Origin: an uncultured Bifidobacteriaceae bacterium | Lineage (GTDB): Bacteria > Acidobacteriota > Vicinamibacteria > Vicinamibacterales > UBA2999 | Direction of reading: 5' to 3' | NCBI GenBank assembly: GCA_964372085.1 | Contig: CAYJPQ010000004.1 | Span: 22,247-86,246, forward strand | Length of the DNA: 64,000 nt | Shown: one piece after another, positions 935 through 64,000 of the stretch | How positions within the stretch are numbered: the first letter of the stretch is position 1 | Layout: each line of letters begins with the position of its first letter | Position numbers and translations under genes: made by a program | The notes under the pieces: generated by a model | Database searches by the model: none | What the model saw: only the letters and a program-made list of their open reading frames with translations | What the model was told of the DNA's origin: nothing

Positions 935-957
935 GGGGGCTATAGTACACTGCCGGT

Positions 958-2613: not shown

Positions 2614-2760
2614 CCAATCGGGCGCCACCCTGACGCGCATCCTCACGCACACCACGGGCCTGCTGACTAACCGGGGCTGGCTGAAGGGATGCGGCCCGAG
2701 GATGGGCTGGAGAGGCGGGGTGGGGCCCGTCGGCCACGTCAGACGGGTGGGGCGAGGCGT

Positions 2761-43221: not shown

Positions 43222-44268
43222 TCATCTAATGAGACCCCACGTCAACGGCGTGCCGCGGAAAATAGTCCGCGTCGCCCTCTTGCCCAGCACGTGGCCTATC
43301 TCTCGCGGCGACAGTCCTCGGCCCGGACGGATGGTGCGGATGTTCTCTCGGGTCAGCTCGTCGCCTTCGAGGATGTCCTGCACGACATAGATCGATCGCC
43401 GGAAGAGGGCGTTCTGCCGTTCGCTGGCCTTCCTTTCGAATGTCGGCAGACCGACGGAAAGCCACGCGTCACGACAGCCGCCTGCGAGCGCGGCCAGTTC
43501 GTCCGGCTCCAGGGAAAATGCGGCATCCGGTCCGCCATCCGACCGCCGCAGCGTGAAGTGCTTCTCGATGATCGAAGCCCCAATAGCCACGGCGGCAATC
43601 GCGGTCGTAATCCCGAGCGTGTGATCCGAGAACCCGACCGGCACATCGAACCTTTTCGCCAGCTCGGCGATGCTACTGATGTTCGCGTCCTCAACCGGAG
43701 TTGGATAGCCACTCACGCAGTGGAGCAGTGCGACATCGCGTGTGCCGGAATCGTACGCGCACTGCACGGCTTCGGACACCTCCTCGGGCGTTGCCATGCC
43801 GGTGGATATAATCAACGGCTTCCCCGTTGACGCTGCCTTGGCGATCAACTCCAAATCGACGATCTCGAACGACGCGATCTTGTAGGCGGGAGTATTGAGC
43901 TCCTCAAGAAAATCGACCGCGCTCTCGTCGAACGGCGAGCTGAAGATTGTTATGCCGAGCTCGCGGCCAAGGCTGAACATCTGCCGCTGGTACTCGCGAT
44001 CGATGCCGATGCCCTTGTAGAGTTGATAGAGAGTTTGACCGCCCCACAGACCGCCATGAATCCAGAAGTCCGGGGCATCGGAGTCTATCGTCAGCGAGTC
44101 TGCATCGAATGTCTGCAGCTTTACCGCATCGGCTCCAGCCTTCTTCGCAGCGACGATCAGCGCCGCCGCACGTTCAGGACTCTGCAGGTGGTTGTTGGAC
44201 ATCTCCGCGATGACATACGGCGGAGCACCCGCGCCAATAGTCCGCCCTGCGATCTCTATCGTCCTCAT
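43222..44268 (-). CDS. pseI: Pseudaminic acid synthase (NeuB family)
   Basis: Contains PPYVIAEMSNNH..ADAVKLQT..WGGQTLYQLY..FSSPFD..YKIASFE..ISTGMAT..FSDHT..IEKHFT, with a C-terminal SAF-like domain. Starting at ATG 44268 gives an ATGA overlap. Confidence 0.85.
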   Translation of the reverse strand: MRTIEIAGRTIGAGAPPYVIAEMSNNHLQSPERAAALIVAAKKAGADAVKLQTFDADSLTIDSDAPDFWIHGGLWGGQTLYQLYKGIGIDREYQRQMFSLGRELGITIFSSPFDESAVDFLEELNTPAYKIASFEIVDLELIAKAASTGKPLIISTGMATPEEVSEAVQCAYDSGTRDVALLHCVSGYPTPVEDANISSIAELAKRFDVPVGFSDHTLGITTAIAAVAIGASIIEKHFTLRRSDGGPDAAFSLEPDELAALAGGCRDAWLSVGLPTFERKASERQNALFRRSIYVVQDILEGDELTRENIRTIRPGRGLSPREIGHVLGKRATRTIFRGTPLTWGLIR

Positions 44269-45077
44269 ACGCCCCCGATCTTCGACGAGTCGCTCGCCGC
44301 ATTTTCCCTGTGCTCTAGCCACGCAACGCTCAGATTGATCGCCTCTACCGAAGCCGCCGCTACCAAGCCGCAGCGAGTGAAAGGCCCCTGATAGGAGAAC
44401 CGTCGTCCCAAGCTGTCAACCAATATGCCACCGGCCTCGGACAGCACGAGTTCGGCTGGTGCGACGTCCCAATCTCTAACGACGACGTCCTTCACCAAGA
44501 GGTCTGCACGGCCCTGGGCCACCCTGCAGATCTTCAAGCCGATGCTACCCGATTCGAGATAGTTCGGAATATCGAACACGCGCATGAGTTCGGCCGCGAT
44601 GGCGCGCGGCTCCGGGTAGTTGTCGGTCAGGGTGCCCTCGTTGAGGGGACGTGACACAACACGCAAGGGCCGGCCGTTGCAGGTGGCTCCTCCGTTCTCC
44701 TGGGCGAGAAACAGCTCGTCGCTCGCTGGCGCGTAAACGGCCGCCAACACAGGACGGTGCTCTCGCATGAGAGCAGCTTGAGTGACGAACCCATCAAACC
44801 CGTGGGCAAAGCTCGCGGTGCCGTCGATAGGGTCGATCAGCCAATAGGTGTCAGGCCGTTGGTCGGTGAAGCTGCTTGGGTCTTCCTCACTAATGACCGG
44901 AATGGCAGGGGACATGGCCTTGAGTTGCCTTTCGAGCGTCGCATGCGCGGTGCGATCGGCATCGGCTTTGAACTGATAGCCAGGCTCCCAGCGCCCCTTT
45001 ACCGAGCCAGACGCCCTCAAGGCTAAGAGTTCTTCGCCGACGACCGTGACCGCCCTGGAAAGTCCGTCGATCATCAC
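44265..45077 (-). CDS. Inositol monophosphatase/CysQ-family phosphatase
   Basis: Metal-binding motifs are ISEED, WLIDPIDGT and RDWDVAP. Confidence 0.8.
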   Translation of the reverse strand: MMIDGLSRAVTVVGEELLALRASGSVKGRWEPGYQFKADADRTAHATLERQLKAMSPAIPVISEEDPSSFTDQRPDTYWLIDPIDGTASFAHGFDGFVTQAALMREHRPVLAAVYAPASDELFLAQENGGATCNGRPLRVVSRPLNEGTLTDNYPEPRAIAAELMRVFDIPNYLESGSIGLKICRVAQGRADLLVKDVVVRDWDVAPAELVLSEAGGILVDSLGRRFSYQGPFTRCGLVAAASVEAINLSVAWLEHRENAASDSSKIGGV

Positions 45078-45114
45078 GAAAAACCGCGCCTTGGTGGGCC
45101 GACAAGAGAGGTCA

Positions 45115-46278
45115 CTACCCGCGTCCCATGTCGTCGATGCTCGAGAATGTCGTCCCGGTGATTCCGATGTCGGTCAGGTACTTGACGATCGGTGTGAAGT
45201 AGTGTGGCCTGCAAATCACGAGATAGTCGACGGGATTCGATTTCAGCGCTTCAGGAGATTCGATCGCAGGGAGCCCCGTCAGCCACGCCCTTCCGTGTTT
45301 GTAGGAATCGCCATCGAAATAGCGGATGCGGCTGGCATCGAGCGAAAGACTGTACTCATACCCTCCCGCATAAAGGCCCACGCTCTTCCCAGAGTCGGTC
45401 AGTCGCCGTAGGGCCGCGACAACCCTTCCGGTCTTGGCCATAAGCGTCTGCGCGTGACGTCGCAACGCTTCCTCCTCCTCTGCCACCGACTCGGTCGGCC
45501 ATCGCGGCTGCACCGACGCGCTGTAATGACCCCACAGCATCACCTCGTTGCCCGCCGGCGTCGCCAGGAAGTCCGCCGAGACAAATCCCTGAGCCTCAAA
45601 TAGGCGAAGCGCATTCGAAGGCGTAAAGTAGTTCACATGCTCGTGCGCGAGGTGTGCAGGGTTGCCCGCTTCGAACAGCGGCGCAGAATTTGGGACGGAG
45701 TGAAAGAATAGTCCCCCTTCATTCAGGCATTCCCGGCTCGCTTCAAATACTTCGTCGAGTTCGACAATGTGTTCAAGACATCCATATGAATAGATCGCGT
45801 CGAACTTCTCCCGAAGCGATCCCGGCTTGAACAGGTGATTGAGAACGCGAATGCCGTATTTCTGCTGGGCGACTCGCGCCTGAGGCCCAATCTCCAGACC
45901 AGTGACATCGGCTCCCCTCTTCTTCAGTTCATTCAAGAACTCGCCGTTCCCGCTGCCGAGCTCGAGGAACCTCCGGCCTTTGATGTCGCCATCGAACAGC
46001 GCGAGTAGCTTGTCCAATGTCTGGTTGAGACGTCCACGGGCAAGCACGCTTTCGCCCAATGGCGTTGACGGCATGCTGCCAATTGCGTACACCCTGTCCA
46101 AGGCCCGCTGAACGTCATCGGTGAGCTTGAGTCGTGGAACCGCGTAGCGCGGATGGACACCCAGGCAGAACGGCAAAGTGCGTGGCAGGTCATTCGAGGA
46201 TTTCAGATCGACGAGGCCCCAGAAGAACGGGTGGTGGTCGATAGTCAGGAGCGAGACAAAGTCATCCATCAAATTCAC
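45115..46278 (-). CDS. SAM methyltransferase with C-terminal C-methyltransferase-type domain (TylC3-like architecture)
   Basis: Motif I is FLELGSGNGEF. The C-terminal ..VGLYAGGYEY..GDSYKHGRAWLTGLPAIESPEAL..DYLVICRPHYF resembles the Methyltransf_14-type domain. It has a GTGA overlap. Confidence 0.65.
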   Translation of the reverse strand: MNLMDDFVSLLTIDHHPFFWGLVDLKSSNDLPRTLPFCLGVHPRYAVPRLKLTDDVQRALDRVYAIGSMPSTPLGESVLARGRLNQTLDKLLALFDGDIKGRRFLELGSGNGEFLNELKKRGADVTGLEIGPQARVAQQKYGIRVLNHLFKPGSLREKFDAIYSYGCLEHIVELDEVFEASRECLNEGGLFFHSVPNSAPLFEAGNPAHLAHEHVNYFTPSNALRLFEAQGFVSADFLATPAGNEVMLWGHYSASVQPRWPTESVAEEEEALRRHAQTLMAKTGRVVAALRRLTDSGKSVGLYAGGYEYSLSLDASRIRYFDGDSYKHGRAWLTGLPAIESPEALKSNPVDYLVICRPHYFTPIVKYLTDIGITGTTFSSIDDMGRG

Positions 46279-47288
46279 CTCGACTTTTGGACAGCCCGTC
46301 GACGCGTCGCAAAGTCATTAAACGTCAGGAACGCATCGACGGTACGCCGGACCAAGGTCACATCTTCGCGCCAGGTCCACACTTCAGATGCGCTGCTGAC
46401 TCCAATCGCCAGATCAACCAGACGCCCCAGTTCATCAACGCCCGCCGCCTGCGTAAGCGTCGTGGTCGTCGAGAAACGCGGATTGATTTCAAACGGCAGC
46501 GGCCTGCCGTCACGGATGTCGACCCTCAATTGCACGTTGAAAGGGCCATCAGCACGAAGCTCGTCTTGTATGGCCCGACAGAGGCCATCGATTTGGGGCT
46601 GGCGGCGGGTCACGGCAATCCGTGTGATGCCCCGCTTGTCGATAATCTCTTTGGGCACCACCGCCCGCACCACGCCGTCGCGCCACGCCACCACAGACAC
46701 CGTGAACTCGGTGCCCTCCACGTAACGCTGCAATAACATTGCATCGACATCCGGCCTGTTAGTTGAAATGTAAGCATCCAGTTCTGCCGGTGTGGCGATC
46801 ACTCTCACCCCACGGCTACCGCGCCCCACGCGGGGCTTGAGAATCAGCGGAAATGGCATCCCGTCGTGGCGGTCCCTCAAGAGCCAACTCTCGGGAACGT
46901 CGATTCCCACCTCTTTCAGGCGCTTCATGAGCGCGTACTTGTCGAGGCACAAGGCCGTGAATGATGACCTCGGCGCGACGACTGGAATGTGCAACTGGTC
47001 AGCCAGGCTGGCAACTGGAAGCAGTTCTTCATCTACCAGCGGCACGAGGACCGCCACGCCTTCGAGCCGGCAAATATGCGCGAGGGCGTCGGGAAAAGCC
47101 ACGGCACTGGCAAACGGAATGCGATACCCGGCATCCGCTAGATACAAGCCTGCCGCATTGGCGTCAGCGTCAACGGCAACAACTCGATAGCGCCGTGCCC
47201 GGAGCCCCTCAATGAGACTCGGCACAGCCGCACCGCCCGCTCCGGTAACCAACACGACCGGCGCCTTATCAGAGACATGCGACGTCAT
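46275..47288 (-). CDS. ATP-grasp family ligase
   Basis: Contains VLVTGAGGAAVPSLI.., ..PLILKPRVGRGSRGV.., ..EFTVSV.. and ..PFEINPRFS. It has an ATGA overlap. Confidence 0.8.
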   Translation of the reverse strand: MTSHVSDKAPVVLVTGAGGAAVPSLIEGLRARRYRVVAVDADANAAGLYLADAGYRIPFASAVAFPDALAHICRLEGVAVLVPLVDEELLPVASLADQLHIPVVAPRSSFTALCLDKYALMKRLKEVGIDVPESWLLRDRHDGMPFPLILKPRVGRGSRGVRVIATPAELDAYISTNRPDVDAMLLQRYVEGTEFTVSVVAWRDGVVRAVVPKEIIDKRGITRIAVTRRQPQIDGLCRAIQDELRADGPFNVQLRVDIRDGRPLPFEINPRFSTTTTLTQAAGVDELGRLVDLAIGVSSASEVWTWREDVTLVRRTVDAFLTFNDFATRRRAVQKSR

Positions 47289-48832
47289 CCAGCCGCCTTC
47301 ACTGACCCTGGATAGCTGCTGTGAAATGACAAACCAGCATCTGGCGCCTGGGCCTGCGTGAATCCCAAGCGCACAAAGACCGCGCGCGAGGCATGATTCC
47401 CTTCTTTCACGTCGGCCCGAAACCGAAGCAGCCCTCTGTCCGTCATGAGCCTCGTACCCATTTGGACGAGGCGTGTTCCCCAGCCTCGTCCACGCACGAT
47501 CGCATCTACGGAATAGTCAATTCGCGCTTCGTCACGGTCGATGTCAAAGCGGATCTGGCCTACCGGCAAGCCGTCGGCCTCGAGCACGAAAAGGAATGCC
47601 GCCGGGTCGCAGAGCTTCTCCGCGAACCACCGGGTATGAGTGGACCACTCGATCGGCCCGGAATGATTGGCGTTCCGGCGCACCTCTCGGTCATTCGCCC
47701 AGTTGAAGTAAGAGATGACGTCGCCCGAGCCGGCGCGCCGAAGCCGAATATGACCTGCGTTGGTCGGCAAGAGCGTTTCGACAACCCGTGGGAGACCCAG
47801 GCCATCGACGACTATCTCATTCGTGGCACTTGTATCTGTGAGCCAGCCTTCGCTATTGGTGAGCTCCCGCAATGCCCGAGACAGCGAATTAGCGTCGCTC
47901 ATGTGACCAACGTACTTGATTAGGCCAGCGGTTGCGAGCGCTTCTGACACGGGTCTCTGGTTGTCCGCAATGCTGATCGCCACGGTCGGCAACCCAAGGC
48001 ACATCCTCTCCCAGGTGGTTGTCCCGACGGCGCCGATGGCCAGATCAGCCTGCATCATGAAATCCGCAAGATGTTCGCGAGGGCCGTGGACCGTGGTAAG
48101 CGGCCGACCCGATGCCTGCTCTTCAATTGCCTTCCGGTTCGGGTGGTTGGCCCCAACCACGACATCGCATTCCCATCGGCTAAACTCGGGGGCGGAGAGC
48201 ACGCCGAGCGCCAGCGATGTCATGTTCGCTGGATCGGACCCTCCAAAGAACACCAGCACGCGTCGAATGCGTCCGTCTCGCTGACGGCGCAACCGACGGC
48301 GCGCCAGATATTCCTCCCTCAACAACGCGTAGCGCGGGCCGCTCAGCAACATGCACGCGGGGCCCACGAGCCGTGCAGACCGCTCGCCGCCGTCCGTGGA
48401 ATAGTTTTGGTTGAGCAATACGTCACAGTCGTGTCTTCGGTCGGTCCTGTCGTCGATCACCATGAGCTTGACGACGTGTGAGCGCACCCGCTCTTCCCAC
48501 TCTGCGTCAAGACCGTAATGATCAACGACGAGCCAATCTGGCTTTGCCTCCGTCAATGCTGCAATGGTCTCTGCCGCGTCTCTCTCCTGCGATACTCCGA
48601 GCCAAGCAGCATAGTCTTCGCCACTCGCGGTCTCCCTTCGTGAAGGTGCTGGAAGAAACGTCGTGCGCACGTTACGCTCCTTCAAGAGAGCACCGAGATG
48701 TCCGTGGTGCTCTCGACAGATGAATCGCGTTTCCGCACCGCGCTTACGCAGGCCGTCGGCGAGCGTCAAACAGCGTGCAACATGGCCTGTCCCCATGCCA
48801 GTGGACGCGTCCGCGCGAAACACCACCTTCAT
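47285..48832 (-). CDS. pseG: Bifunctional PseG (UDP-2,4-diacetamido-2,4,6-trideoxy-beta-L-altropyranose hydrolase) / PseH-like GNAT N-acetyltransferase
   Basis: The N-terminus is MKVVFRADASTGMGTGHVARCLTLA. The C-terminal ~160 aa are GNAT (..NWANDREVRR..HTRWF..VGQIRFD..RGRGWG). I set the start at ATG 48832 (ATGA overlap). The 74 extra codons in the track ORF look non-coding. Confidence 0.85.
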   Translation of the reverse strand: MKVVFRADASTGMGTGHVARCLTLADGLRKRGAETRFICREHHGHLGALLKERNVRTTFLPAPSRRETASGEDYAAWLGVSQERDAAETIAALTEAKPDWLVVDHYGLDAEWEERVRSHVVKLMVIDDRTDRRHDCDVLLNQNYSTDGGERSARLVGPACMLLSGPRYALLREEYLARRRLRRQRDGRIRRVLVFFGGSDPANMTSLALGVLSAPEFSRWECDVVVGANHPNRKAIEEQASGRPLTTVHGPREHLADFMMQADLAIGAVGTTTWERMCLGLPTVAISIADNQRPVSEALATAGLIKYVGHMSDANSLSRALRELTNSEGWLTDTSATNEIVVDGLGLPRVVETLLPTNAGHIRLRRAGSGDVISYFNWANDREVRRNANHSGPIEWSTHTRWFAEKLCDPAAFLFVLEADGLPVGQIRFDIDRDEARIDYSVDAIVRGRGWGTRLVQMGTRLMTDRGLLRFRADVKEGNHASRAVFVRLGFTQAQAPDAGLSFHSSYPGSVKAAG

Positions 48833-49512
48833 TCGAGCCGCCGGCCCAGCATGAACGCCTCGGCGGCGTGGGCACCAACCGTTGCACCGCGCCATCGCGC
48901 CAGATGTTCGACGGCTTGGCGACAACGCGGATGTGGCCATCCGCGCAATTCGGCGGCGTAGGCATCCAGCGCCGAGAGCTTGAGTTCCAGCGTTCCAGAG
49001 ATGTCGACGAACCAGTTCGGCACGAACGCCGGGGCGGATCCAGGCAACTGCCATTCAGTACTCGAGGCGACCTCGAAGGCAAGAATCGTTCTTACCACGT
49101 GGCCGGACTGGGGGCGGCAGGCCGTCGCCACGGCCTCGTGTGTGCGTCGGTGATCGATGTTCAAATCTCCAGCGTGATGCGTGAGGATCATCTGGGGTCG
49201 ATGCTGAGCGACAAGCGCCTCGACGGCTTGCGCAATGGACAGGAGTGCAACCGTGTCCATGCGATTGTCCGGCAAATCGCCAAAAGATACCGACGTCACT
49301 CCGAGCGTAGCGCTCGCTTTCCTCGCCGCGGCACGGCGCGACGCGAGTTCACTCTGCTGTGCGTCGGAGTCGCCAGGACGCGAGAACACGCCGTCCGCCA
49401 AGAACGCGACGTGAACGACACTCCCGCGTTTCGCGAGTGTCGCAATCGTGCCGCCACAGCCGAGGACCTCGTCATCAGGATGGGCCGCCACGATAAGCAC
49501 GGAACCGTTCAT
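48829..49512 (-). CDS. PIG-L/LmbE-family de-N-acetylase
   Basis: Contains VLIVAAHPDDEVLGCGGTIA and ..HHAGDLNIDH.. It has an ATGA overlap. Confidence 0.85.
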   Translation of the reverse strand: MNGSVLIVAAHPDDEVLGCGGTIATLAKRGSVVHVAFLADGVFSRPGDSDAQQSELASRRAAARKASATLGVTSVSFGDLPDNRMDTVALLSIAQAVEALVAQHRPQMILTHHAGDLNIDHRRTHEAVATACRPQSGHVVRTILAFEVASSTEWQLPGSAPAFVPNWFVDISGTLELKLSALDAYAAELRGWPHPRCRQAVEHLARWRGATVGAHAAEAFMLGRRLE

Positions 49513-50206
49513 TCAGTCACCGCGTTGGCAAACATGGCTCGATACATCAGCTCGGCCCTCAACCAGTCCTCTGGCGTATCGATGTCCTGCACCCGCCACC
49601 GAGGAATCGTCAGCGGAAACGACTGCCTTCCAAAAATCGGCCGACCGTCGAGCCACGCACTTGGGCGTCCCCAATAGAACTGCCCTGCGTCATGCAAGGC
49701 CACCGGCAGGTCCTGCGACCGAGTCCGAAAATGTTCCGGAAAGAACATCTCCACGCCGCCTTCTGGGCATTCACGGAACGCTCTGAAAATAGGCGCAGCA
49801 AAATGGGCGACCGAGAACGCGTAAGCCCATTCTCCAGAAACGAGCGCGGCGAGCGCCGTCTTCAGGTCGTCGACATTCACAAATGGGGCGGTCGCGCTGA
49901 TGCAACAAACGGCCGACACGGACCACTCTTGCGCCAACGCCCATTCGACCGCGTGTGCCACAACGAGAGGGACCACCGCATGGTCGTCGGAGAGTTCAGC
50001 CGGGCGCATGAAAGGCACTTCGCCTCCCCACTGTCTGGCGACTGCAGCGACCTCGAAGTCGTCGGTCGAGACAATGACGTGGTCGAATAGCTCAGCCGCT
50101 CGAGCCACTTCAATCGACCAAGCCACCATCGGCTTGCCGCAAAATTCTCGGATGTTCTTTCTGGGAATCCGCTTGCTTCCACCACGGGCTGGAATCACGG
50201 CGATGT

Positions 50207-50210
<4 letters not shown>
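49509..50210 (-). CDS. pseF: Pseudaminic acid cytidylyltransferase (CMP-NulO synthetase family)
   Basis: Starts NIAVIPARGGSKRIPRKNI.. and is 233 aa. It has a GTGA overlap and lies between the PIG-L gene and pseC. Confidence 0.85.
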
Positions 50211-52359
<2,149 letters not shown>

Positions 52360-54261: not shown

Positions 54262-54276
54262 CGGCCATTTGCCGAT

Positions 54277-55080: not shown

Positions 55081-55781
55081 GAACGACCCTTGTGTCCTTC
55101 CATGAGACACTCCGCAACAAGGAAGTCGAGCGGTGTGTCGATGTCAATCGCACGCTCGACAGGAACCCGCACAGGGCGAACTCTTCCGTCGAATAGGCCG
55201 TCTCGAGCCATCAAGAAGTCAGGCCGGACGACGTAAGCAACCGTTGACATGTCGAACACTTCAGGGGTGTCTTGCCGCCGGGCGATCGAATGGCTTGGAG
55301 GTATGACCAACTCCACCGTTCCGTTCGCGTTGGCCTTGACCATATTGAAGTACGGGCTGCGGTGAGCCTCAGTCACCGTGATAATCACATCCGCGTCGCC
55401 TTTCTCGTATTCGTCCAAGCACCGTTCAAGATCGGCGACCGCTCGCAGGGGAGCCGTGGCAGGCACGACAATCAGGACATCGGGTCCGGCACCATCGCTG
55501 TCTCTAAGATGCGCCATGGCGTGGCGCCACACCATCCACTCTGGGCTGTCGTCCTGGGCCAGTTCCACCGGTCGCGAGAACGGCACCTCCGCGCCGGCGG
55601 CCAAGGCAATGTCGGCTATCGCGGCGGAGTCGGTGGAAACGATGACTCGGCTAATCCGTTTGACGGCCTTGGCGTGCTCGATGGACCAGACAACCAATGG
55701 CCGACCACCCAACGGGCGGATGTTCTTGCCAGGGACCCCTTTCGAACCGCCCCTGGCGCAAATCAATGCAACGACGGTCAT
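55077..55781 (-). CDS. Acylneuraminate/legionaminate-type cytidylyltransferase (CMP-NulO synthetase)
   Basis: Starts MTVVALICARGGSKGVPGKNI... I set the start at ATG 55781. The 97 upstream codons of the track ORF overlap the preceding gene and look like junk. Confidence 0.85.
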   Translation of the reverse strand: MTVVALICARGGSKGVPGKNIRPLGGRPLVVWSIEHAKAVKRISRVIVSTDSAAIADIALAAGAEVPFSRPVELAQDDSPEWMVWRHAMAHLRDSDGAGPDVLIVVPATAPLRAVADLERCLDEYEKGDADVIITVTEAHRSPYFNMVKANANGTVELVIPPSHSIARRQDTPEVFDMSTVAYVVRPDFLMARDGLFDGRVRPVRVPVERAIDIDTPLDFLVAECLMEGHKGRS

Positions 55782-55785
55782 GAAG

Positions 55786-56820
55786 TCACTGGGTCCCGCC
55801 CCGACCTGCCGCCGGCTCGACCGCTGCGAGGCTCCCGGATTCCGACGAGCGGCGTATGGCATCGATGATCCGCAGCACGGCCAAGCCGTCATGTCCGGAC
55901 GCGCTAGGACTACTGGCATCAGCGATACATGCCAGGAAGTGCCGCCATTCAGACTCATAGCAGTCATCGCTCTCCTGCCGGGGCGCGAACAGCGACTCCC
56001 AGTGGCTGGCACCCGCCTCAAACACCTCAACCGTGCCAGCCAATGCGTTCCAGCGCAGCGAACCCAATTCACCGATGGCAGTGCAGTTCCTGCTGGTATC
56101 GTGGCGGATGAAGTCCATACTCAGAACACCCACCAACGGAGCAGCCCCCATTCTGGGTGCGAAGCCCAGGATCACGTGGGCTGTATCTTCCACGTCGATC
56201 TCCAGACGACTCTGCTTGCGATGGACCGCGTTGATCCACTCCACCTCTCCAAATATCCATCGCAGATAGTCGATCTCATGGCTCAACTCTAGAAGCACAC
56301 CGCCGCCGAGCGCGGCCTGTGCCGACACCGTCCTCCGATAGTCTGAGCCGGGGCGCCATGATGGTAGGAACTGACCGACCTCGGCCCGTACCGACAGGAC
56401 CGAGCCAATCCGTTCTTCGTGGAGTAAGGCACGGAACCTCTGCAAGGACGGCCAAAACCTCAGGTTGTAGCCCGTCATCAGCGCAACGCCGCGGCCCTCG
56501 CAAAGGTCAATCAGTTCAGATACCCCATTAGCCGAACTGGAAAGGGGCTTCTCGACCAATAAGTGGACGCCGGCGTCAGCCAGGCGACGAGCCACCTCAA
56601 TATGATGGCTCGCCGGATTCGCGATCACAGCAACCTGCGGCTTGAACGCCAGCGCCTCCTCGATCGTCGTGACGCAGCGGTCAATGCCGGTGACCGCCAT
56701 GTCGCCGCAGCTTCGATGCCTCAACACGGCCAGCTGCGCGTCAGGTACAACCCTCCGAATAACTCGCGCATGAAGGGCGCCAATGCTTCCGAAGCCTACA
56801 ATGAGAAGACGTGCGGCCAT
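55786..56820 (-). CDS. Gfo/Idh/MocA-family oxidoreductase
   Basis: Has the N-terminal Rossmann LIVGFGSIG, plus ..LLVEKPL.. Length is 344 aa. Confidence 0.85.
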   Translation of the reverse strand: MAARLLIVGFGSIGALHARVIRRVVPDAQLAVLRHRSCGDMAVTGIDRCVTTIEEALAFKPQVAVIANPASHHIEVARRLADAGVHLLVEKPLSSSANGVSELIDLCEGRGVALMTGYNLRFWPSLQRFRALLHEERIGSVLSVRAEVGQFLPSWRPGSDYRRTVSAQAALGGGVLLELSHEIDYLRWIFGEVEWINAVHRKQSRLEIDVEDTAHVILGFAPRMGAAPLVGVLSMDFIRHDTSRNCTAIGELGSLRWNALAGTVEVFEAGASHWESLFAPRQESDDCYESEWRHFLACIADASSPSASGHDGLAVLRIIDAIRRSSESGSLAAVEPAAGRGGTQ

Positions 56821-56883
56821 GCGCGTGGAAGAGTGGCTGGGGTCTGGCGCCCGAGTGCAACGATGGCCGGGCGCGATGGGGCC

Positions 56884-58083
56884 TTAGGATGGTTTGTGGG
56901 CGATAAAGTCGACGTGGCGGACGCCCACAGCCCCCTTGAATAGGTGCTTGCACGATGTGATATACGCGCGAATCTCGGGCAGGTTTGCCGTTTCGACCAA
57001 GTCAATATATCCCTTGGCTTCAGCGACAAACTCCACCATTCGCGCCTGAAACGGCTCCAGGATGGACAATTCTTTGAATGCCGAGGCAGCCCCGTCGGCA
57101 AGTTCATGGAACTGACGTCGATCGAGCGAGGAGCCAGAATTGAGGTTTGCGACGTAGCTCGTCAATGCTGACAGGTTGTCTGCATATCGGCGATAGCCGG
57201 CGCCCAGGGCCTGCACGTTCTGGCTGTCGCCTTGGTTCTGCAACAGCCAAATCGTCTCAGCGATGCTCGCCATGCCCCTCGTCCGTGTGGCGTCGAACTT
57301 CGGCCGGTGGTGCACCGAATCGCCAATTAGCGGGAGCATGAACGGCGGATAGCTTGAGTAGTGTGTCAGTCCGCAATCCGAAAACCAGCCCATGACCTCA
57401 TCGACCGACGGATCGTCCTGGCTTTGAATCACCCACCTGTCGAAGATGATTGATCTGCGGGTGCGATTGACGAACGACTGGCTTCGATCGATGTCTTCCT
57501 TGAACAGCGCCTCGGAAACGTCCACCATCTCGTCCCACGAGTTGGCGTGGCGATAGACAGCGTGGCGTTGGAGCATGTTCTGGAATCCACCTGCCTTGTT
57601 GGGATCGCCAAAGATCAGAAAGCCTCCAGGTTTCACAAAGCCTGCGATCTTCTTGAAGGCACCCTGTTTGTCCGCGGTGTGGCTCAACACGCCGCGGCAA
57701 TGAACAATGTCGTACTTGACCGGCGATTCGTAGTCAAAGATCGAGGACTGGTAAAATTGGTGCTTGCCACTCTTCGCGTAGCGGTCGAAGATCTGCCGGG
57801 CAATCGCCAATGCCTTGTCGTTCATTTCTACGAGCGTGCAATTCGCGCCCCACTCGGCGAGGGAGATCGTGTTCTCGCCCGTGCCCGCACCGAAGTCGAT
57901 GAGTTCGGCCCCGGCAAACATCTTTGGCGGAAACTTGAACAAATCTCGATAGGTGTACGCAGCGTTGGCCGCATACTGACGAAATTCCGCTTCTGATTTG
58001 TCGGAGAAGTAGATCGAAGGAATCTCCTCCTGAAACGTCTTCAGCGTGGCTCGTTCAACTTCTCTAATCTTTTCGGGTGCCAT
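56884..58083 (-). CDS. Class I SAM methyltransferase with long C-terminal extension
   Basis: Motif I is LIDFGAGTGENT. ATG 58083 is preceded by ACGAGGAACA, which is SD-like. The ORF-track start is 58113. Confidence 0.8.
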   Translation of the reverse strand: MAPEKIREVERATLKTFQEEIPSIYFSDKSEAEFRQYAANAAYTYRDLFKFPPKMFAGAELIDFGAGTGENTISLAEWGANCTLVEMNDKALAIARQIFDRYAKSGKHQFYQSSIFDYESPVKYDIVHCRGVLSHTADKQGAFKKIAGFVKPGGFLIFGDPNKAGGFQNMLQRHAVYRHANSWDEMVDVSEALFKEDIDRSQSFVNRTRRSIIFDRWVIQSQDDPSVDEVMGWFSDCGLTHYSSYPPFMLPLIGDSVHHRPKFDATRTRGMASIAETIWLLQNQGDSQNVQALGAGYRRYADNLSALTSYVANLNSGSSLDRRQFHELADGAASAFKELSILEPFQARMVEFVAEAKGYIDLVETANLPEIRAYITSCKHLFKGAVGVRHVDFIAHKPS

Positions 58084-58146
58084 TGTTCCTCGTTTCCTTT
58101 GGGTTGCGGACATTCAGCGCCAGGTGCCGATCTTGAGCAGCAGGAC

Positions 58147-59121
58147 TCATGACGACTCGGACATGAGCGCGGCTGCCAGGTTGGCCGAATCTTCGCGTGC
58201 CAATTCCAGGCAACTGGCGTTCACCTCCTTGCCGGCCGGCGCCAGCAGATTGGCTCGGAAGCCGCACTGGATACCAAGATCCGTCAAGACGGTCAGCGAG
58301 TCACCGCTGTACGAATTGAGAGGGTGCGACATGCACCGCGGCCGGTGGCCGGTCACAGTCGCGATATGTGTATAGTTCCTCTCATACTGGTCCTGCTGCT
58401 CCTGGCGGGACAGCTGGGCTATATCATAAGGGTGGTCGTAGGAATGAAGACCCACTTGGTGGCCGCGGCGCGTCAATTCGCGCAGGTCCGCGTCGTCCAG
58501 CCAGAGACCCCGGGCCACCTCTTCCACATCGACGCCGCGCTCTGTGAGGATGCAATCCATCAGCCCTTCAAAAATCGCGCGATTCTCCGTCTGATTCCTC
58601 AGAAATCGGAACTGCACGTCGCTCAGCGTATAGAAAGGCGCGGCCTCGCGCATCAGCGCTGCGTAAGCGGCGTAACTGGATGAGTTCAGCTGGGTTAGCA
58701 TATCTGGAGCGCAACGAGACAAGAATTCCTCGCTGAGGGCAGCCATCCCGCCAGCCTCGCCGGCAACGTAGCTGTAGACTTCGCTCCTCACTGGGCGGCC
58801 CGAGAAGACACAGGAGTAGACGAACCAGAACGCCTGCAACCCATACCGCTCGAGCACTGGCAGAGCATGGTCAACTTGACAGCGCAATCCATCATCAAAG
58901 GTGATGCAGATGTCTTGATCGCAGAGCCTGCCCTCGCCCAACCGTGACAACCATTCGTCAGGCGCAAGAATGCTGCCGATCCCAACGTGCAGGAGGATCC
59001 TCTCAAAGTCCTCGGACGAGAGTGCACCCTGCCACGCCGTTGTGGCGTCCCCCGGACGAAATCGGTGGAACATGAGGCCGTGCGGGAAACGGCGTTCGCC
59101 GCCTGCGGAGCGCCGACTCAC
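58147..59121 (-). CDS. NodB-homology (CE4) polysaccharide/sugar deacetylase
   Basis: Contains ITFDDGLR and GLHSYDHP. Starting at GTG 59121 gives a GTGA overlap with the amidinotransferase stop. Confidence 0.8.
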   Translation of the reverse strand: MSRRSAGGERRFPHGLMFHRFRPGDATTAWQGALSSEDFERILLHVGIGSILAPDEWLSRLGEGRLCDQDICITFDDGLRCQVDHALPVLERYGLQAFWFVYSCVFSGRPVRSEVYSYVAGEAGGMAALSEEFLSRCAPDMLTQLNSSSYAAYAALMREAAPFYTLSDVQFRFLRNQTENRAIFEGLMDCILTERGVDVEEVARGLWLDDADLRELTRRGHQVGLHSYDHPYDIAQLSRQEQQDQYERNYTHIATVTGHRPRCMSHPLNSYSGDSLTVLTDLGIQCGFRANLLAPAGKEVNASCLELAREDSANLAAALMSESS

Positions 59122-60296
59122 CCGAAATAGTCCTCGATAACGCTGTCGCGTACCGTGTCGAGAGTGGCGCAATGAATGCCGCCACCCTGAGTATAGATGT
59201 GCCGCATTCGCACCGGGACGGGCGTGAGACCGTGCTTCTCGAGCACCCGCATGAGGTTGGTCTGGCGCTCGTCGACCACGACGGTCGATTGGTCGAGCGA
59301 CAGGAAGTTCATGCCCACCCAGGGCGACGACATATCGTTGAGATTCGTGACAAACCCGAGCGCCTCGATCTGCTTGGCGAGCTTGTCGCGAACATCCTTC
59401 TGGAAATCAAGCTCCGGCTGCGACGTCGGCGCGACGTCTTCGAAATAGATCTTGTCCCACTTATCGAACAGTTTGGGGCAATTCCGTTCACCGACTCGTT
59501 TGCTGTTCAGCATGACGAGACCCGGTCGCAAGCACAACACTGTGGAATCGATGTGACTCGATCGGTAGATATCTTCCGTGGTGTGGACTCGGTATTCCGC
59601 GCCAAGAACGCTCTGGAGCCACTTGGCGCTCTTGTGGTTGCCCGAGCTGGACACGAGACAAAGCAGATCGCGCCCCATTCGCACGGTGTTCGCGGCCTCG
59701 AAGACGATTTCGAGCTCATTGAGCCTGTGCAGCTTCTCGACGCGGCCACCAGTCAACTCCATGAATCGACGGTCTTCATCCGTGAGCTTTCGTTCTCCTT
59801 CGTCACGATAATACGGCTCCAGCACTGGCTGGTCGAGCCGCGGGCGCGGCCCGCAAATCCAGACAAAACCCTCATCAAAATACTCATACCAAATGTCGTA
59901 TAAGGTCGTCGCCTCGAAGTAGCGGCTGCGCAAGTACGACGGACTCTCGATGACGGTATTGCCGACGACCAGGTGCAGATCGCGCACGTTGTAACTATTG
60001 TTGCCGGTCGACTGCCAGAACGGAGTCGCATACATCCGCGCAATGTCGTGCACCTTGGGACGATGCACCTTGACGCCGAACCGGGCGATGCTATCGGCGA
60101 GGCCGTTCAGGTCTTCCTCAATCTCATCGAGGAACCACTGGGGGTGCGCTTCGTGATTCAGTGCCACTGCCTGCGCCAGCGCATCTCCGGGAATCGGATT
60201 GGGTCGTGGCCACGTAAGAACTGCATGAGTTCCTTCAGCAGTGCCAACGATGACCTCCCGAAGCTTGTCCCATTCGTTGTGGCTGTTGATTTTCAC
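59118..60296 (-). CDS. Amidinotransferase (StrB1 / glycine amidinotransferase family)
   Basis: 392 aa with ..SSHIDSTVLCLRPG.. and the C-terminal catalytic-Cys context YTQGGGIHCATLD, characteristic of L-arginine:X amidinotransferases. The GTG start overlaps the upstream TAG by 1 nt. Confidence 0.75.
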   Translation of the reverse strand: MKINSHNEWDKLREVIVGTAEGTHAVLTWPRPNPIPGDALAQAVALNHEAHPQWFLDEIEEDLNGLADSIARFGVKVHRPKVHDIARMYATPFWQSTGNNSYNVRDLHLVVGNTVIESPSYLRSRYFEATTLYDIWYEYFDEGFVWICGPRPRLDQPVLEPYYRDEGERKLTDEDRRFMELTGGRVEKLHRLNELEIVFEAANTVRMGRDLLCLVSSSGNHKSAKWLQSVLGAEYRVHTTEDIYRSSHIDSTVLCLRPGLVMLNSKRVGERNCPKLFDKWDKIYFEDVAPTSQPELDFQKDVRDKLAKQIEALGFVTNLNDMSSPWVGMNFLSLDQSTVVVDERQTNLMRVLEKHGLTPVPVRMRHIYTQGGGIHCATLDTVRDSVIEDYFG

Positions 60297-61396
60297 TATT
60301 GGTTACCCTTTTTCGTAAAAGGTGGAACTGCGATTTTCGATCCCCCGTCCAACTGCGCACGTTGCAGATCGTCCGGCAGTCCCAGATCAATCCATCGTTC
60401 GTGCACCGGATAGACAATGGTCCGCCTGCCATCATCCCGGAGACGGCTGAATAGCGTCGTCATATCACATCGTTCACCGACTGCTACGTGGTCGAGCGCA
60501 CTCGGCTCGATCGCGTAGATTCCTGCATTCACGTAGTCGCGTACGACGGGCTTCTCCTCGAGTCCGACGATTTCCAGGCCCTTCGTGCGGACCACGCCAA
60601 ACGGATGCTGCCATTCGTGTTGCCGTACCGCCATCGTCGCCTCCGTGGCGTGACGGCAATGGAAGTCGAGAAGCTCTCCGTAGCGAATGTCCGTGAGCAC
60701 GTCACCATTCGAGACGATGAACGGCGCCTTGGGTCGCGGAGAAATCAGCCCGAGCGCCCCGGCAGTGCCAAGAGGAACGCTTTCCCTCAAGTAGTCGATT
60801 CGGGCCTGCCATCGACTGCCGTCACCGAAATAATCCTCGATCATTTGACCGAGATAGTGAATGGCCAGCACGAAATGGCTGAACCCCTCGCGCCTCGCCC
60901 GTTCGATGATCCATTCCAGCATCGGCTTGCCGTCAACGGGCAACAGAGGCTTCGGACAGTTCTCGGTCTGTGGCATCAGGCGCACGCCTTGGCCGCCAGC
61001 CATGATCACCATGATATTGGGCCGGTCCGCAGGTGCGAGCAGCTCGTGGAGCACGTGCAAGCCGACGACCTTTCGGCCTTCACCGATGACGGGCAACGCG
61101 AAGATCTCGTTGGCCTGCATGAGACCGAGCACCGCCTCATGCGTCAACTCAGGGGGCACAACGAGGGCGTCGTGAAAGATGATGGAGTCGATCGCGCTGG
61201 TCAGTTGGAGGCCACGGAGCAGACCGCGGCGAATGTCGCCGTCGGTGATCGTGCCGACGAACGTACCATCGGCTGACACGACCAGGGCAATCTGCAGCGC
61301 GGACTCGTTCAGGCAACGAATGGCATCCTGCACGGTGGCGGCGGCGGGCAGCAACGCCTTGCGCCACGACTGACCGCGTGTCCGGCGCACGGTCAT
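60296..61396 (-). CDS. CBS-domain nucleotidyltransferase (PtmE-like sugar-1-phosphate nucleotidyltransferase)
   Basis: An N-terminal CBS pair (..LVVSADGTFVGTITDGDIRR.., ..LPVIGEGRKVVG..) is followed by MAGGQGVRLMPQTENCPKPLLPV. Confidence 0.85.
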   Translation of the reverse strand: MTVRRTRGQSWRKALLPAAATVQDAIRCLNESALQIALVVSADGTFVGTITDGDIRRGLLRGLQLTSAIDSIIFHDALVVPPELTHEAVLGLMQANEIFALPVIGEGRKVVGLHVLHELLAPADRPNIMVIMAGGQGVRLMPQTENCPKPLLPVDGKPMLEWIIERARREGFSHFVLAIHYLGQMIEDYFGDGSRWQARIDYLRESVPLGTAGALGLISPRPKAPFIVSNGDVLTDIRYGELLDFHCRHATEATMAVRQHEWQHPFGVVRTKGLEIVGLEEKPVVRDYVNAGIYAIEPSALDHVAVGERCDMTTLFSRLRDDGRRTIVYPVHERWIDLGLPDDLQRAQLDGGSKIAVPPFTKKGNQ

Positions 61397-62568
61397 GCGG
61401 TTCCCACCGAAGGCGAGAGATCGCAGAAGTGCTTCTTCAGTATGTTGTCCAGTGGTACATCTCGCAGGGTCTGCACGACGCGCTGGCTCGCGCCGCCGTC
61501 ACCGTAGGGGTTACAAACATCGCCAAGGGTTGCCTGAAAAGGCGCCGAGTACATCTTCCTCAGTGCAGCGACGATCGACACGCGATCGGGCTTGCAATCG
61601 ATCACGCTCGCGGCCCTCAGCCGGCCCCGCTGACGATCGCCAATATTGATCGTGCCTTTCCGAAAGGCCGGCGCCTCGATCAATCCGCTCGATGAGTTGC
61701 CGACGACGGCATCCACGTATTGGAGACAAGATAGATACAGCAACTGGCCGAGCGACGTAAAGGCCTTTGTATGGGGACGGTCGGCGACGTGCTGCGCGAC
61801 CAGATCGATGATCGGGCGGTTCCCGGGATCGGCGTTGGGCAGCGTGAAGATCACGCGTGTGTCCCTGACCTCATCGAGTGCGGCGAGCAGTTCCTGCACC
61901 TGTTGTGCCGAGGTGTCCGGTTCGAGCGTGACCGGATGAAAAGTAGCGAGAAGGCACTTCGGGCCAAGTTCGAAGCCGAGCGCCTCTTCGAGTTCCGGCC
62001 GAGTCAGCAGTTTTAGCCTCTGGATACTGTCAAGGCCCAGGCCGCCGACCAGGAAGACTCGGGAAGGGTCTTCCCCGAGCTGAATCACGCGCCGCTGGTA
62101 ATCCTCGGCCGCCACGAAATGGAGGTGGGACATCTTGGTGATGGAATGCCGGAAGGCTTCATCGAACGCGCCCTCACTAACCTCGCCACCGTGCAGATGC
62201 GCCACTGGAATCCGCGCCACCGTCGCCGCGGCGACGGCCGAGAATACCTCGAAACGATCGCCAAGCACGAGGAGCACGTCCGGCTGCAGGCGGTGTAACG
62301 CCTCACCGAAGCCGATGAGCCCCAGACCCATGGACTTGGCAAGGGCCGTAGGCGTATCGGCGTCCAACAGTGTCTCGATCTTGGTGTCGATCGAGATGCC
62401 GTCATTTTCGATCTCGCGATAGGTAAGGCCAAATGCCGGCGACAGATGCATACCCGTGGCAACGACCTGCAGGCGCAGCCCCGGGGTCGCCACAATGTCC
62501 CGCATCACCCAACGCAGCAGACCGTAATCGGCGCGTGAACCGGTTACGACACAGATCCTACGGCTCAT
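61393..62568 (-). CDS. UDP/GDP-HexNAc 2-epimerase (hydrolysing), NeuC/LegG type
   Basis: Starts RICVVTGSRADYGLLRWVM.. and contains ..HLHGGE.. It has ATGA overlaps on both sides. Confidence 0.88.
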   Translation of the reverse strand: MSRRICVVTGSRADYGLLRWVMRDIVATPGLRLQVVATGMHLSPAFGLTYREIENDGISIDTKIETLLDADTPTALAKSMGLGLIGFGEALHRLQPDVLLVLGDRFEVFSAVAAATVARIPVAHLHGGEVSEGAFDEAFRHSITKMSHLHFVAAEDYQRRVIQLGEDPSRVFLVGGLGLDSIQRLKLLTRPELEEALGFELGPKCLLATFHPVTLEPDTSAQQVQELLAALDEVRDTRVIFTLPNADPGNRPIIDLVAQHVADRPHTKAFTSLGQLLYLSCLQYVDAVVGNSSSGLIEAPAFRKGTINIGDRQRGRLRAASVIDCKPDRVSIVAALRKMYSAPFQATLGDVCNPYGDGGASQRVVQTLRDVPLDNILKKHFCDLSPSVGTA

Positions 62569-63566
62569 AGCTCGATGAGCTCGTCGGGCGAGTAGTCTCG
62601 CCTCGCCGTGCGGCCGATTGCCTCATCCCATCGCATCGGCGAAATGCCATTGCCTGGGCGCTTGACGGCGAGGTTGGTTTCGCTCAGGGTCTCGCCCGCG
62701 CGAATCGCTCGCGCCGCCACCAGAGACTTCCGGGCCGCCGATCTGGTCCTCACTTCGCTGGCGCTGGGGCGCTTGATGCCGTTACCTAGCGCTTGTTCAA
62801 TATTCCGAATCGCCGCCACCATGACGGCCAAATCATCGGGATCGAGGCTCGCTTGATGGTCCGGACCGGGCAGGGTCCGGTCAATCGTGAAGTGTTTCTC
62901 GATTACCGTTGCACCGAGCGCGACAGCCGCGATGGCGACTTCAATCCCTGCTGTGTGGTCCGAATAGCCCACGGACACGCCGAAAGCCTCACGAATCGAC
63001 TGCATCGCTAGTAGGTTCACGTCTGGAAAAGGAGTGGGGTATTCGGTGCTGCAGTGCAGGACAGTGATCCTGTCGCGGGGTGTGCCGGCATCCTCCAGCA
63101 CCTCCAGCGCCGCCTCAATTTCGCCCATCGTGGCCATTCCGGTTGAGAGCATCGTCGGCTTGCCGTAGCGGCCCACGTGCCGCAGATAAGGCAAATTCGT
63201 TATCTCTCCAGATGGGATCTTGAATCGATCCAAGCCCAGCTCGACCAACATATCGATACTATCTGTGTCAAATCCGCTCGATAGGAAGCCGATGCCCCTG
63301 GAATGACATTGCGCGATCAGTGCCTCGTGCATTTCTCGGCTTAGTTCGAGTTGGCGAATCATCGCGTGCTGTGATTCGCCCGCAGCGGTCGCGCGCCTTT
63401 GATACTCGGCCTTGGCAGCGTCAACGGTCACAAGGCGATCAGCACTAAATGTCTGGAATTTCACCAGATCGGCGCCGGCGTGAGCGGCCACGTCAATCAG
63501 TTGGCGGGCCATGGCTAGAACGCCATTATGATTCACGCCCGCCTCGGCGATGATAAGCGTCCTCAC
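62565..63566 (-). CDS. NeuB-family nonulosonic acid synthase (legionaminic-acid-synthase-like)
   Basis: Contains IIAEAGVNHNG..ADLVKFQT..FKIPSGE..LSTGMAT..YSDHT..IEKHFT. The start is GTG. Confidence 0.88.
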   Translation of the reverse strand: MRTLIIAEAGVNHNGVLAMARQLIDVAAHAGADLVKFQTFSADRLVTVDAAKAEYQRRATAAGESQHAMIRQLELSREMHEALIAQCHSRGIGFLSSGFDTDSIDMLVELGLDRFKIPSGEITNLPYLRHVGRYGKPTMLSTGMATMGEIEAALEVLEDAGTPRDRITVLHCSTEYPTPFPDVNLLAMQSIREAFGVSVGYSDHTAGIEVAIAAVALGATVIEKHFTIDRTLPGPDHQASLDPDDLAVMVAAIRNIEQALGNGIKRPSASEVRTRSAARKSLVAARAIRAGETLSETNLAVKRPGNGISPMRWDEAIGRTARRDYSPDELIEL

Positions 63567-63685
63567 GACGCCTGCTTTGGCGGCGGCATGATGGTCCCGG
63601 CCAAGCGTAGCATGACATGCGAGGTAGCCATGTCGTTGACAGCGGCCACGTTGCGTGTCGGAGTCGGGCGAGGGACGTCAGCCAT
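63563..63685 (-). CDS. Candidate 40-aa small ORF bridging the dehydratase and synthase genes
   Basis: Sequence is MADVPRPTPTRNVAAVNDMATSHVMLRLAGTIMPPPKQAS. Its ATG overlaps the upstream TGA by 1 nt (TGATG) and its TGA overlaps the downstream GTG start (GTGA). It is below the 60-aa cutoff of the ORF track, and I recognised no family. Confidence 0.25.
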   Translation of the reverse strand: MADVPRPTPTRNVAAVNDMATSHVMLRLAGTIMPPPKQAS

Positions 63686-64000
63686 CACAAATTGTAGATG
63701 TCGGATTTATAGGACGCGAGGTGCGACGGGTTCGTGAACCAGGCAATCGTCTCAGCGAGACCGCGGCGGAAGCCCTCGCGTCCCGCGTAGCCGGGCGTCC
63801 ATTCGAGGAGCTTGCGAGCTTTGTCGTTTGACGCCCACAGGCGGTGCACTTCGCTTTTCTCAGGGCGAATGCGCTGCTCATCGGACGCGATCTGGATCTG
63901 CGCACCCATCAGTTCAGCGATAGTCTGCGCCGTTTCGCCGATCGAAATCTCAAAGTTGCTGCCGATATTGACTATTTCACCAACCCCACGGTCGGAACGG
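63685..64000 (-). CDS. NAD-dependent sugar 4,6-dehydratase, LegB-like, C-terminal part only (5' end beyond window)
   Basis: The frame stays open to nt 64000. It reads ..GEIVNIGSNFEISIGETAQTIAELMGAQIQIASDEQRIRPEKSEVHRLWASNDKARKLLEW..YKSDIYNL, which matches the C-terminus of extended-SDR dehydratases of the LegB type. The track lists only the internal-Met part, 63685..63909. Confidence 0.7.
   Translation of the reverse strand, partial: RSDRGVGEIVNIGSNFEISIGETAQTIAELMGAQIQIASDEQRIRPEKSEVHRLWASNDKARKLLEWTPGYAGREGFRRGLAETIAWFTNPSHLASYKSDIYNL

Follow-up and report, generated by a model that had tools for sequence, protein, structure and literature searches.

Nonulosonic acids (NulOs) are sialic-acid-like sugars that decide how phages, predators and immune systems see bacterial surfaces, and inferring a cell's NulO from the pathways predicted in its genome is common practice. 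In Legionella pneumophila and in Acinetobacter (lga), legionaminic acid (Leg) is made by a uridine diphosphate (UDP) route, in which PglF/PglE/PglD-type enzymes lead to UDP-N,N'-diacetylbacillosamine (UDP-diNAcBac), and this Leg precursor is then passed on to a NeuC-type epimerase and a NeuB-type synthase. The flagellin glycosylation locus of Campylobacter jejuni holds the pseudaminic acid (Pse) genes together with legB/legC and Cj1327-1332 (legI-legG-ptmE-ptmF-legF-ptmA), in which Leg is made by a guanosine diphosphate (GDP) route. The cluster of Plesiomonas shigelloides contains legB, legC, legG, legI, legH, ptmE, ptmF, legF, ptmA and glmU; Leg on its flagellin was shown experimentally, and a legH mutant loses its flagella (PMC4481668). 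Two-synthase NulO loci have already been published for Leptospira (PMC3438082), C. jejuni is the second published precedent, and the LIC12162 family takes its name from the NulO cluster of Leptospira interrogans. In this work, a stretch of 64,000 nucleotides (nt; hereafter the window) from an uncultured sediment bacterium (GenBank assembly GCA_964372085.1, contig CAYJPQ010000004.1, positions 22,247 to 86,246; GTDB lineage Acidobacteriota, Vicinamibacterales) was analysed, in which a predicted pse module and a predicted leg module lie side by side. The two-NulO arrangement itself is ordinary and already published; the new element is a leg operon that is truncated, by the deletion of legC and legH, and apparently maintained.

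Gene identities were assigned with curated family models (NCBIfam TIGR, Pfam), and every gene named in the original prediction was recovered in its place on the minus strand. The two co-directional modules are separated by one LIC12162-family gene (52360..54243, minus strand), in agreement with the single putative transferase gene that had been noticed between the sets, and its product has a predicted GT-B fold. In the direction of transcription, the 3' end of legB and the rest of the leg module are followed by the LIC12162 gene, the pse module and a Capsule_synth gene, and neighbouring genes of the array overlap by 4 nt or stand at most 118 nt apart. The two modules are distinct, as had been claimed: their synthases and cytidylyltransferases fall in different clades, and each module has its own tailoring genes and a candidate transferase. 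Of the two pathways described as complete-looking, that description holds for pse and fails for leg, from which legC and legH are deleted, leaving a scar. Like the C. jejuni locus, the window combines Pse and GDP-route Leg genes in one region, uses the same enzyme families (including PtmE, PtmF and PtmA) and carries tailoring genes among the pathway genes. In contrast to C. jejuni, the two sets abut co-directionally around the LIC12162 gene, legC is missing in addition to legH, the deletion has left a visible scar, and the tailoring genes encode a StrB1-type amidinotransferase, a CE4 protein, a PIG-L protein and an ATP-grasp ligase instead of ptmG/ptmH/pseA. The context also differs, since no flagellin or maf gene is among the annotated genes and the surroundings are those of a Wzy/ABC-type polysaccharide locus. 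P. shigelloides shares the ptm-type families with the window and has both legC and legH, whereas the window operon has neither. The Leptospira locus with a LIC12162-family gene is L083 (handles of this form denote loci read in this analysis); there the adjacent synthase belongs to a third NeuB clade, whereas the window has LegI- and PseI-type synthases.

The canonical order legB-legC-legH-legI-legG-ptmE-(ptmF)-legF-(ptmA) was found in the close relatives L085, L087, L172 and L173, whose LegI is 76-79% identical to that of the window. Moreover, a LegC-type aminotransferase, usually together with an acetyltransferase, lies directly upstream of legI in 40 of the 44 LegI-anchored metagenome loci that extend far enough on this side. 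The LegB, LegI, LegG and PtmE proteins of the window are 67-87% identical to their canonical-operon orthologues. By tblastn against the window and 20 kb upstream, the best matches to LegC and LegH reached only 27-35% identity, which is the level of paralogues, and with the LegC model TIGR04181 (cut-off 420) the best scores among the tested proteins were 219 (PseC), 196 and 141 bits. The flanks beyond the window were read on an identical 137-kb metagenome contig, on the right side over 31 kb. It had been suggested that legC/legH equivalents might lie to the right; neither these 31 kb nor the window contained any, and the full legB was found there instead. It encodes 332 amino acids (aa; L001:8884-9882), runs past the right edge of the window and scores 521 bits against TIGR04180 (cut-off 475). 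Its 3' end inside the window (63685..64000, minus strand), of the GDP-GlcNAc 4,6-dehydratase type, scores 85.8 bits as a fragment and is 76-87% identical to canonical-operon LegB.

The 118-nt spacer between legB and legI contains an open reading frame (ORF) of 40 codons (63563..63685, minus strand; MADVPRPTPTRNVAAVNDMATSHVMLRLAGTIMPPPKQAS), which overlaps the stop codon of legB (TGATG) and the start codon of legI (GTGA). Its protein was compared with four LegC orthologues and four LegH tails by BLOSUM62 local alignment with 2000 shuffles. Residues 2-30 align to about residues 59-89 of LegC (ending in VAVVNGTAALHVALRLAG), and in all four orthologue comparisons 0 of 2000 shuffles reached the score. 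Residues 28-40 align to the last 12 residues of LegH (AGTHMPSPKRPS and the stop), with p = 0.0015-0.05 for the four LegH tails; the motif AGTHMPSPKRPS is confined to the nearest clade. At the DNA level, the 3' part of the scar matches the 3' end of legH of L087 (0 of 2000 shuffles reached the score). Two other DNA comparisons gave no significant match, namely the 5' half of the spacer against the 5' end of legC (p 0.3-0.96) and the spacer against the whole legC-legH DNA; the scar is recognised only at the protein level and at the position-matched legH tail. Because of its alignments to LegC 59-89 and to the LegH tail, the ORF is a legC'-'legH fusion scar of a deletion, with the two parts joined at a shared Ala-Gly. 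An assembly artefact at this point was ruled out, as the legB-legI junction is without any difference in separately assembled contigs from four sediment runs.

The same kind of loss was observed in L112, an unrelated metagenome contig with 45% GC, in which legB abuts legI. The spacer of this locus (L112:6689-7001) holds a decayed remnant of the LegC N-terminus (tblastn E 3e-16), and its breakpoint lies near LegC residue ~90, close to that of the window. The LegI of L112 is sister (SH-aLRT, the Shimodaira-Hasegawa-like approximate likelihood ratio test, 100) to the LegI of the legC-bearing operon L095, whereas the LegI of the window groups with L085 and L087. The losses would therefore be separate, and legC appears to have been lost at least twice.

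By comparing the scar with its neighbours, two patterns of divergence can be seen. The LegC-derived part of the scar keeps 61% aa identity, where the same stretch is 94-100% identical among intact orthologues; its DNA identity is 59-67% versus 78-83% among intact genes, and about one in four of its sites at codon positions 1 and 2 has changed. The neighbouring legB, legI, legG and ptmE keep 73-92% identity at these two positions, with fourfold sites saturated (32-46%). None of the ten leg-module genes contains a stop codon, and LegB, LegI and LegG match curated full-length models end to end. Since about 7.7 kb of leg genes are intact, though many stops would be expected had they drifted like the scar, we infer continued purifying selection on the leg module. 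It would mean that a seemingly complete leg operon may be without its aminotransferase and acetyltransferase yet be maintained, and therefore rules based on gene presence would mispredict its product.

We hypothesize that the leg module descends from a canonical GDP-type operon, legB-legC-legH-legI-legG-ptmE-ptmF-legF-ptmA, from which legC and legH were deleted, and that 4-amination and N-acetylation are now supplied in trans. The most economical supplier would be the locus itself, with its PglF-like dehydratase, Pcryo_0638-type aminotransferase and PglB/NeuD-type acetyltransferase. The dehydratase (L001:5141-7003), which lies upstream of legB, has a CoA_binding_3 plus Polysacc_synt_2 architecture. 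The predicted C4 aminotransferase (24861-26036, minus strand) matches PDB 7l7x over its full length with 550 bits, and 7l7x is Pcryo_0638, which has been characterised biochemically as the UDP-4-keto-6-deoxy-GlcNAc aminotransferase in UDP-diNAcBac synthesis. The adjacent N-acetyltransferase of the NeuD/PglB type (26121-26762, minus strand) passes TIGR03570, the NeuD/PglB/VioB model, with 205 bits; its top PDB match is 4m98 ("Pilin glycosylation protein", 134 bits), and at 31-32% identity to LegH it is a paralogue. A small PglC-like phosphoglycosyltransferase, assigned by a family model, follows at 26759-27367 (minus strand). All four enzyme types of the UDP-diNAcBac (bacillosamine) route are thus predicted in the locus. 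Alternatively, copies of legC and legH may lie elsewhere in the genome; in C. jejuni, legH is likewise encoded apart from the other leg genes (10.64898/2026.04.20.719630). With either supplier, both modules would be functional, and the cell could display two differently derivatised NulOs on its surface glycan or glycans. For the explanation as a whole, namely a complete pse module and a maintained, legC/legH-deleted leg module that is fed in trans and yields a second NulO, we estimate a probability of about 0.6. If the bacillosamine enzymes do feed the leg operon, the locus would be a clear example of sharing between a priming-sugar pathway and a NulO pathway.

Several points weigh against supply in trans. 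The LegG of C. jejuni strongly prefers a GDP-linked substrate and Pgl-type enzymes make a UDP-linked one, so cross-feeding would need a relaxed nucleotide specificity of LegG. The UDP-route systems show the same flow as the one proposed here, whereas legG, legI, legB and ptmE of the window are of the GDP-route operon type. Moreover, a feed of UDP-diNAcBac would make legB and ptmE redundant, yet both are intact. The argument for selection depends on only about 30 informative codons of the scar, and the assignment to leg draws on synteny, hidden Markov model scores and automatic names given by the Joint Genome Institute (JGI).

If the bacillosamine feed is not true, the operon points to an undescribed NulO, and an alternative of this kind, which we consider unlikely, is that the truncated leg module makes a different sugar. 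The 4-keto product of LegB would be reduced by an oxidoreductase, and LegG and LegI would convert it to a mono-amino 9-deoxy NulO, to which the tailoring cassette might add a guanidino or N-methyl-guanidino group. Mono-amino 9-deoxy NulOs do occur in nature, as fusaminic acid of Fusobacterium. The loss of legC and legH from an otherwise conserved module, the same loss separately in L112, the genuine StrB1-type amidinotransferase inside the operon and the divergence of the Gfo/Idh/MocA protein and the short-chain dehydrogenase/reductase (SDR), whose identity to canonical PtmF and PtmA is only 31-38%, speak for such a product. However, LegI and LegG are still 69-79% identical to orthologues that work with legC and legH and give no sign of changed specificity, a supply of diNAcBac is present in the same locus, and in L168 and L170 the amidinotransferase cassette shares a cluster with LegC- and LegH-type genes, so it is an add-on and no substitute. 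A role of the cassette as a replacement of legC/legH was ruled out by this co-occurrence. A more specific version is speculative and in our view quite unlikely: the legC-legH deletion would be recurrent and selected, and the shortened pathway would give an undescribed NulO without the 7-amino group, perhaps converted to a guanidino derivative by the embedded cassette and installed by the LIC12162 protein.

It is very unlikely that the leg module is a dead remnant, in which the deletion (for instance under phage or grazer pressure) ended Leg synthesis and left the Pse derivative as the sole product. In favour of this reading, surface sugars are often lost through deletions, the two missing enzymes are indispensable in the pathway as characterised, and the scar itself is non-functional. 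On the other hand, the ~7.7 kb of neighbouring genes are stop-free, match models over their full length and show a pattern of purifying selection against the decayed scar; the same architecture with intact flanks exists in the separate lineage of L112, and the arrangement is identical in four samples.

The identity of the second synthase was assessed in a NeuB-family tree of 84 sequences, in which the characterised references were the NeuB of Neisseria meningitidis (NmNeuB), the SpsE of Bacillus subtilis and the PseI 8h2c; in this tree and in that of the cytidylyltransferases, synteny labels on the clades took the place of characterised LegI and LegF sequences. The legI-type synthase (62565..63566, minus strand) scores 494 bits against TIGR03569 and only 281 against the PseI model. 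It falls inside a leg-context clade of 22 rows (SH-aLRT 100), which is defined by legB-legC-legH-legI-legG-ptmE synteny and leaves NmNeuB and SpsE outside, and its homologues carry the automatic JGI name N,N'-diacetyllegionaminate synthase. The original assignment to the Leg type has therefore survived the test of clustering with the N. meningitidis Neu5Ac synthase. That this set makes N-acetylneuraminic acid (Neu5Ac) or ketodeoxynononic acid (Kdn) is hardly credible: the NCBIfam model that the synthase passes carries the name N-acetylneuraminate synthase, and the PDB scores for SpsE, NmNeuB and PseI (194, 178 and 175 bits) are similar and non-discriminating, but the gene lies off the NmNeuB branch, is flanked by a LegB above its equivalog cut-off and by PtmE, and has the legC/legH scar directly upstream.

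The remaining genes of the leg module, all on the minus strand, follow legI. The NeuC-type hydrolysing 2-epimerase legG (61393..62568) scores 466 bits against TIGR03568 and is 69-70% identical to canonical LegG. The ptmE-type gene (60296..61396), a marker of the GDP route, encodes a CBS-nucleotidyltransferase with CBS and NTP_transferase domains and is 67-68% identical to canonical PtmE. Three tailoring genes are inserted next. The first (59118..60296) encodes a StrB1/AGAT-family amidinotransferase of 392 aa that matches PDB 1bwd with 250 bits (E 5e-73), and its GGGIHCATLD segment aligns with the C-terminal motif of that inosamine-phosphate amidinotransferase. The second (58147..59121) encodes a CE4 polysaccharide-deacetylase-family protein (Pfam Polysacc_deac_1, E 5e-20), the start of which is uncertain (59172, 59121 or 59073), with gene calls that vary among assemblies. 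The third (56884..58083) encodes a methyltransferase dependent on S-adenosylmethionine (Pfam Methyltransf_23, _31 and _12) that is 56.5% identical to the gene of the same cassette in L168. The ptmF position is held by a Gfo/Idh/MocA oxidoreductase (55786..56820; family models), which shares 54-59% identity with its positional counterparts in L122, L088 and L099 and only 31% with PtmF of L087. The legF-type cytidine monophosphate (CMP)-NulO synthetase (55077..55781) scores 144 bits against the PseF model, under its cut-off of 206, and shares only 33-38% identity with the LegF proteins of the nearest operons; it falls in a clade of nine rows (SH-aLRT 95), in which seven of the eight other members are tagged as leg-cluster genes and the eighth is untagged. 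The last gene, in the ptmA position (54277..55080), encodes a protein of the SDR families with 64% identity to its positional counterpart in L122 and 57% to the one in L040. The SDR and Gfo/Idh/MocA pair had been read as a possible sign of an epi-legionaminic isomer, a reading that was ruled out, as this is the ordinary ptmA/ptmF pair of GDP-type clusters (PMC4481668). The predicted module (legB, legI, legG, ptmE, and ptmF-, legF- and ptmA-like genes) is thus of the GDP type, as in the Campylobacter ptm genes.

The amidinotransferase and CE4 cassette, in L168 and L169 also with a methyltransferase, recurs in leg-type clusters of Acidobacteria, Lentisphaerae and others. In L168-L170 the same amidinotransferase adjoins NeuB, NeuC and PtmE genes, and the enzyme is 68-86% identical across more than 120 protein clusters. 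At least two of the cassette-bearing clusters (L168 and L170) retain legC/legH-type genes. The recurrence of the cassette in distant phyla points to a guanidino or amidino modification of NulOs that has yet to be described. A CMP-synthetase-synthase fusion of 573 aa (CTP_transf_3 plus NeuB/SAF) was also seen in the Lentisphaerae leg-type cluster (L170:5239-6960).

The LIC12162-family protein (TIGR04331/PF27859) scores 460 bits against TIGR04331 (cut-off 225) over model positions 1-585 of 585. Its AlphaFold2 model has a mean predicted local distance difference test (pLDDT) value of 87.5, and the Foldseek matches are GT-B glycosyltransferases, which are distant (E 1e-7 to 1e-4, template modelling (TM) score 0.3-0.5). 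The family was surveyed in 80 genome loci (L004-L083), which were obtained by a scan with an alignment, a single-protein query having found none. Its members span many bacterial phyla and also methanogens (Methanoregula). Across these 80 loci the gene typically stands after a NeuB of the third clade (often ~290 aa), a CMP-synthetase and one or two SDRs, and in L013, L015 and L036 pse genes directly follow it. The third NeuB clade includes an open frame of ~760 codons in Leptospira interrogans, which is probably the published synthase-phosphatase fusion (PMC3438082). From the model and this gene order, the LIC12162 protein would be a candidate transferase for the upstream NulO. This gives an uncharacterised family a testable role, that of a transferase tied to the upstream NulO module.

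The pse module (43.2-52.4 kb) is predicted to be complete, with pseB, pseC, pseF, pseG-GNAT and pseI, and holds four tailoring genes in addition; all are on the minus strand. PseB (51355..52356) matches TIGR03589 over its full length with 555 bits (cut-off 408), PseC (50207..51358) matches TIGR03588 with 532 bits (cut-off 424), and the CMP-NulO synthetase PseF (49509..50210) matches TIGR03584 with 300 bits (cut-off 206) and is, in the cytidylyltransferase tree, the sister of PseF from the complete pse cluster L068. The next gene (48829..49512) encodes a PIG-L/LmbE-family de-N-acetylase (Pfam PIG-L, E 1.5e-29). It is followed by a fusion of pseG with a C-terminal GNAT part (47285..48832), in which residues 75-373 score 288 bits against the PseG model TIGR03590 (cut-off 154) and the remainder carries GNAT Pfam domains. 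For the GNAT part alone the top NCBIfam match is PseH, at 28.5 bits under the cut-off of 93, and by its position it would be the pseH-equivalent. The other tailoring genes encode an ATP-grasp ligase (46275..47288; family models), a methyltransferase (45115..46278; Pfam) and an inositol-monophosphatase/CysQ-family phosphatase (44265..45077; Pfam Inositol_P, E 3e-38). The PseI-like NulO synthase (43222..44268) scores 446.6 bits against TIGR03586 (cut-off 340) and 264 bits against the solved PseI 8h2c, with which it shares a clade (SH-aLRT 98). One nt past the pseI stop begins a KpsS/KpsC-like Capsule_synth gene (41742..43220, minus strand; Pfam PF05159, E 7e-9), the product of which is a candidate transferase for the Pse product. 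In L173, a near relative from the same study, ATP-grasp, IMPase-like (inositol monophosphatase) and PIG-L genes 41-58% identical to those of the window, plus a methyltransferase gene, were observed at positions 1-5300; they accompany a NeuB of 308 aa from another clade, and an intact legB-legC-legH-legI operon lies immediately downstream.

Two or more NeuB genes were found in 6 of the 50 LIC12162-anchored loci that hold NeuB and in 3 of 80 LegI-anchored loci. It is therefore true, as had been stated, that most loci encode one NulO, although two-synthase loci are a recurrent minority and a published one (PMC3438082). In L122 leg genes are followed by pseB, in L088 pse genes are followed by leg genes, and in L085 and L173 a canonical leg operon is accompanied by a second set with its own synthase. 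Since two-NulO arrays recur and have published precedents, the side-by-side arrangement is of a known kind, and adjacent Pse and Leg gene sets are not exceptional among environmental bacteria. The second set of L085 (L085:14984-21002) consists of a NeuB and a CMP-synthetase with a radical-SAM/SPASM protein, a DegT protein, a methyltransferase and a WbqC-like gene, and this region is, judged by its predicted genes, another multi-NulO locus.

Of the genes assigned between ~18.7 kb and the window's right edge, nearly all are on the minus strand. A promoter and terminator scan of 44-64 kb gave sites no more numerous than in shuffles, and none of them fell in the intergenic gaps. To the right of the window, the full legB is followed by a MsbA/PglK-like ATP-binding cassette (ABC) exporter and the PglF-like dehydratase, and farther right come two Wzm/Wzt pairs and Wzy-like genes, together with many glycosyltransferases and a TagF-like transferase. 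The surface-glycan locus as a whole is longer than 95 kb (contig positions ~32-124 kb; window 1-64000 plus L084 and L171). Its TagF-like transferase is a Glyphos_transf protein, the Wzy/O-antigen-ligase-like proteins number several, and there are many genes of glycosyltransferase family 4 (GT4). The GC content is mostly 65-70% in the first 20 kb of the window versus 56-62% across the NulO/glycosyltransferase region (22000-64000), a drop that is consistent with glycan genes that were acquired or are compositionally distinct. Three AsnB-type amidotransferases were found at 4206-6128, 28495-30492 and 36011-37870.

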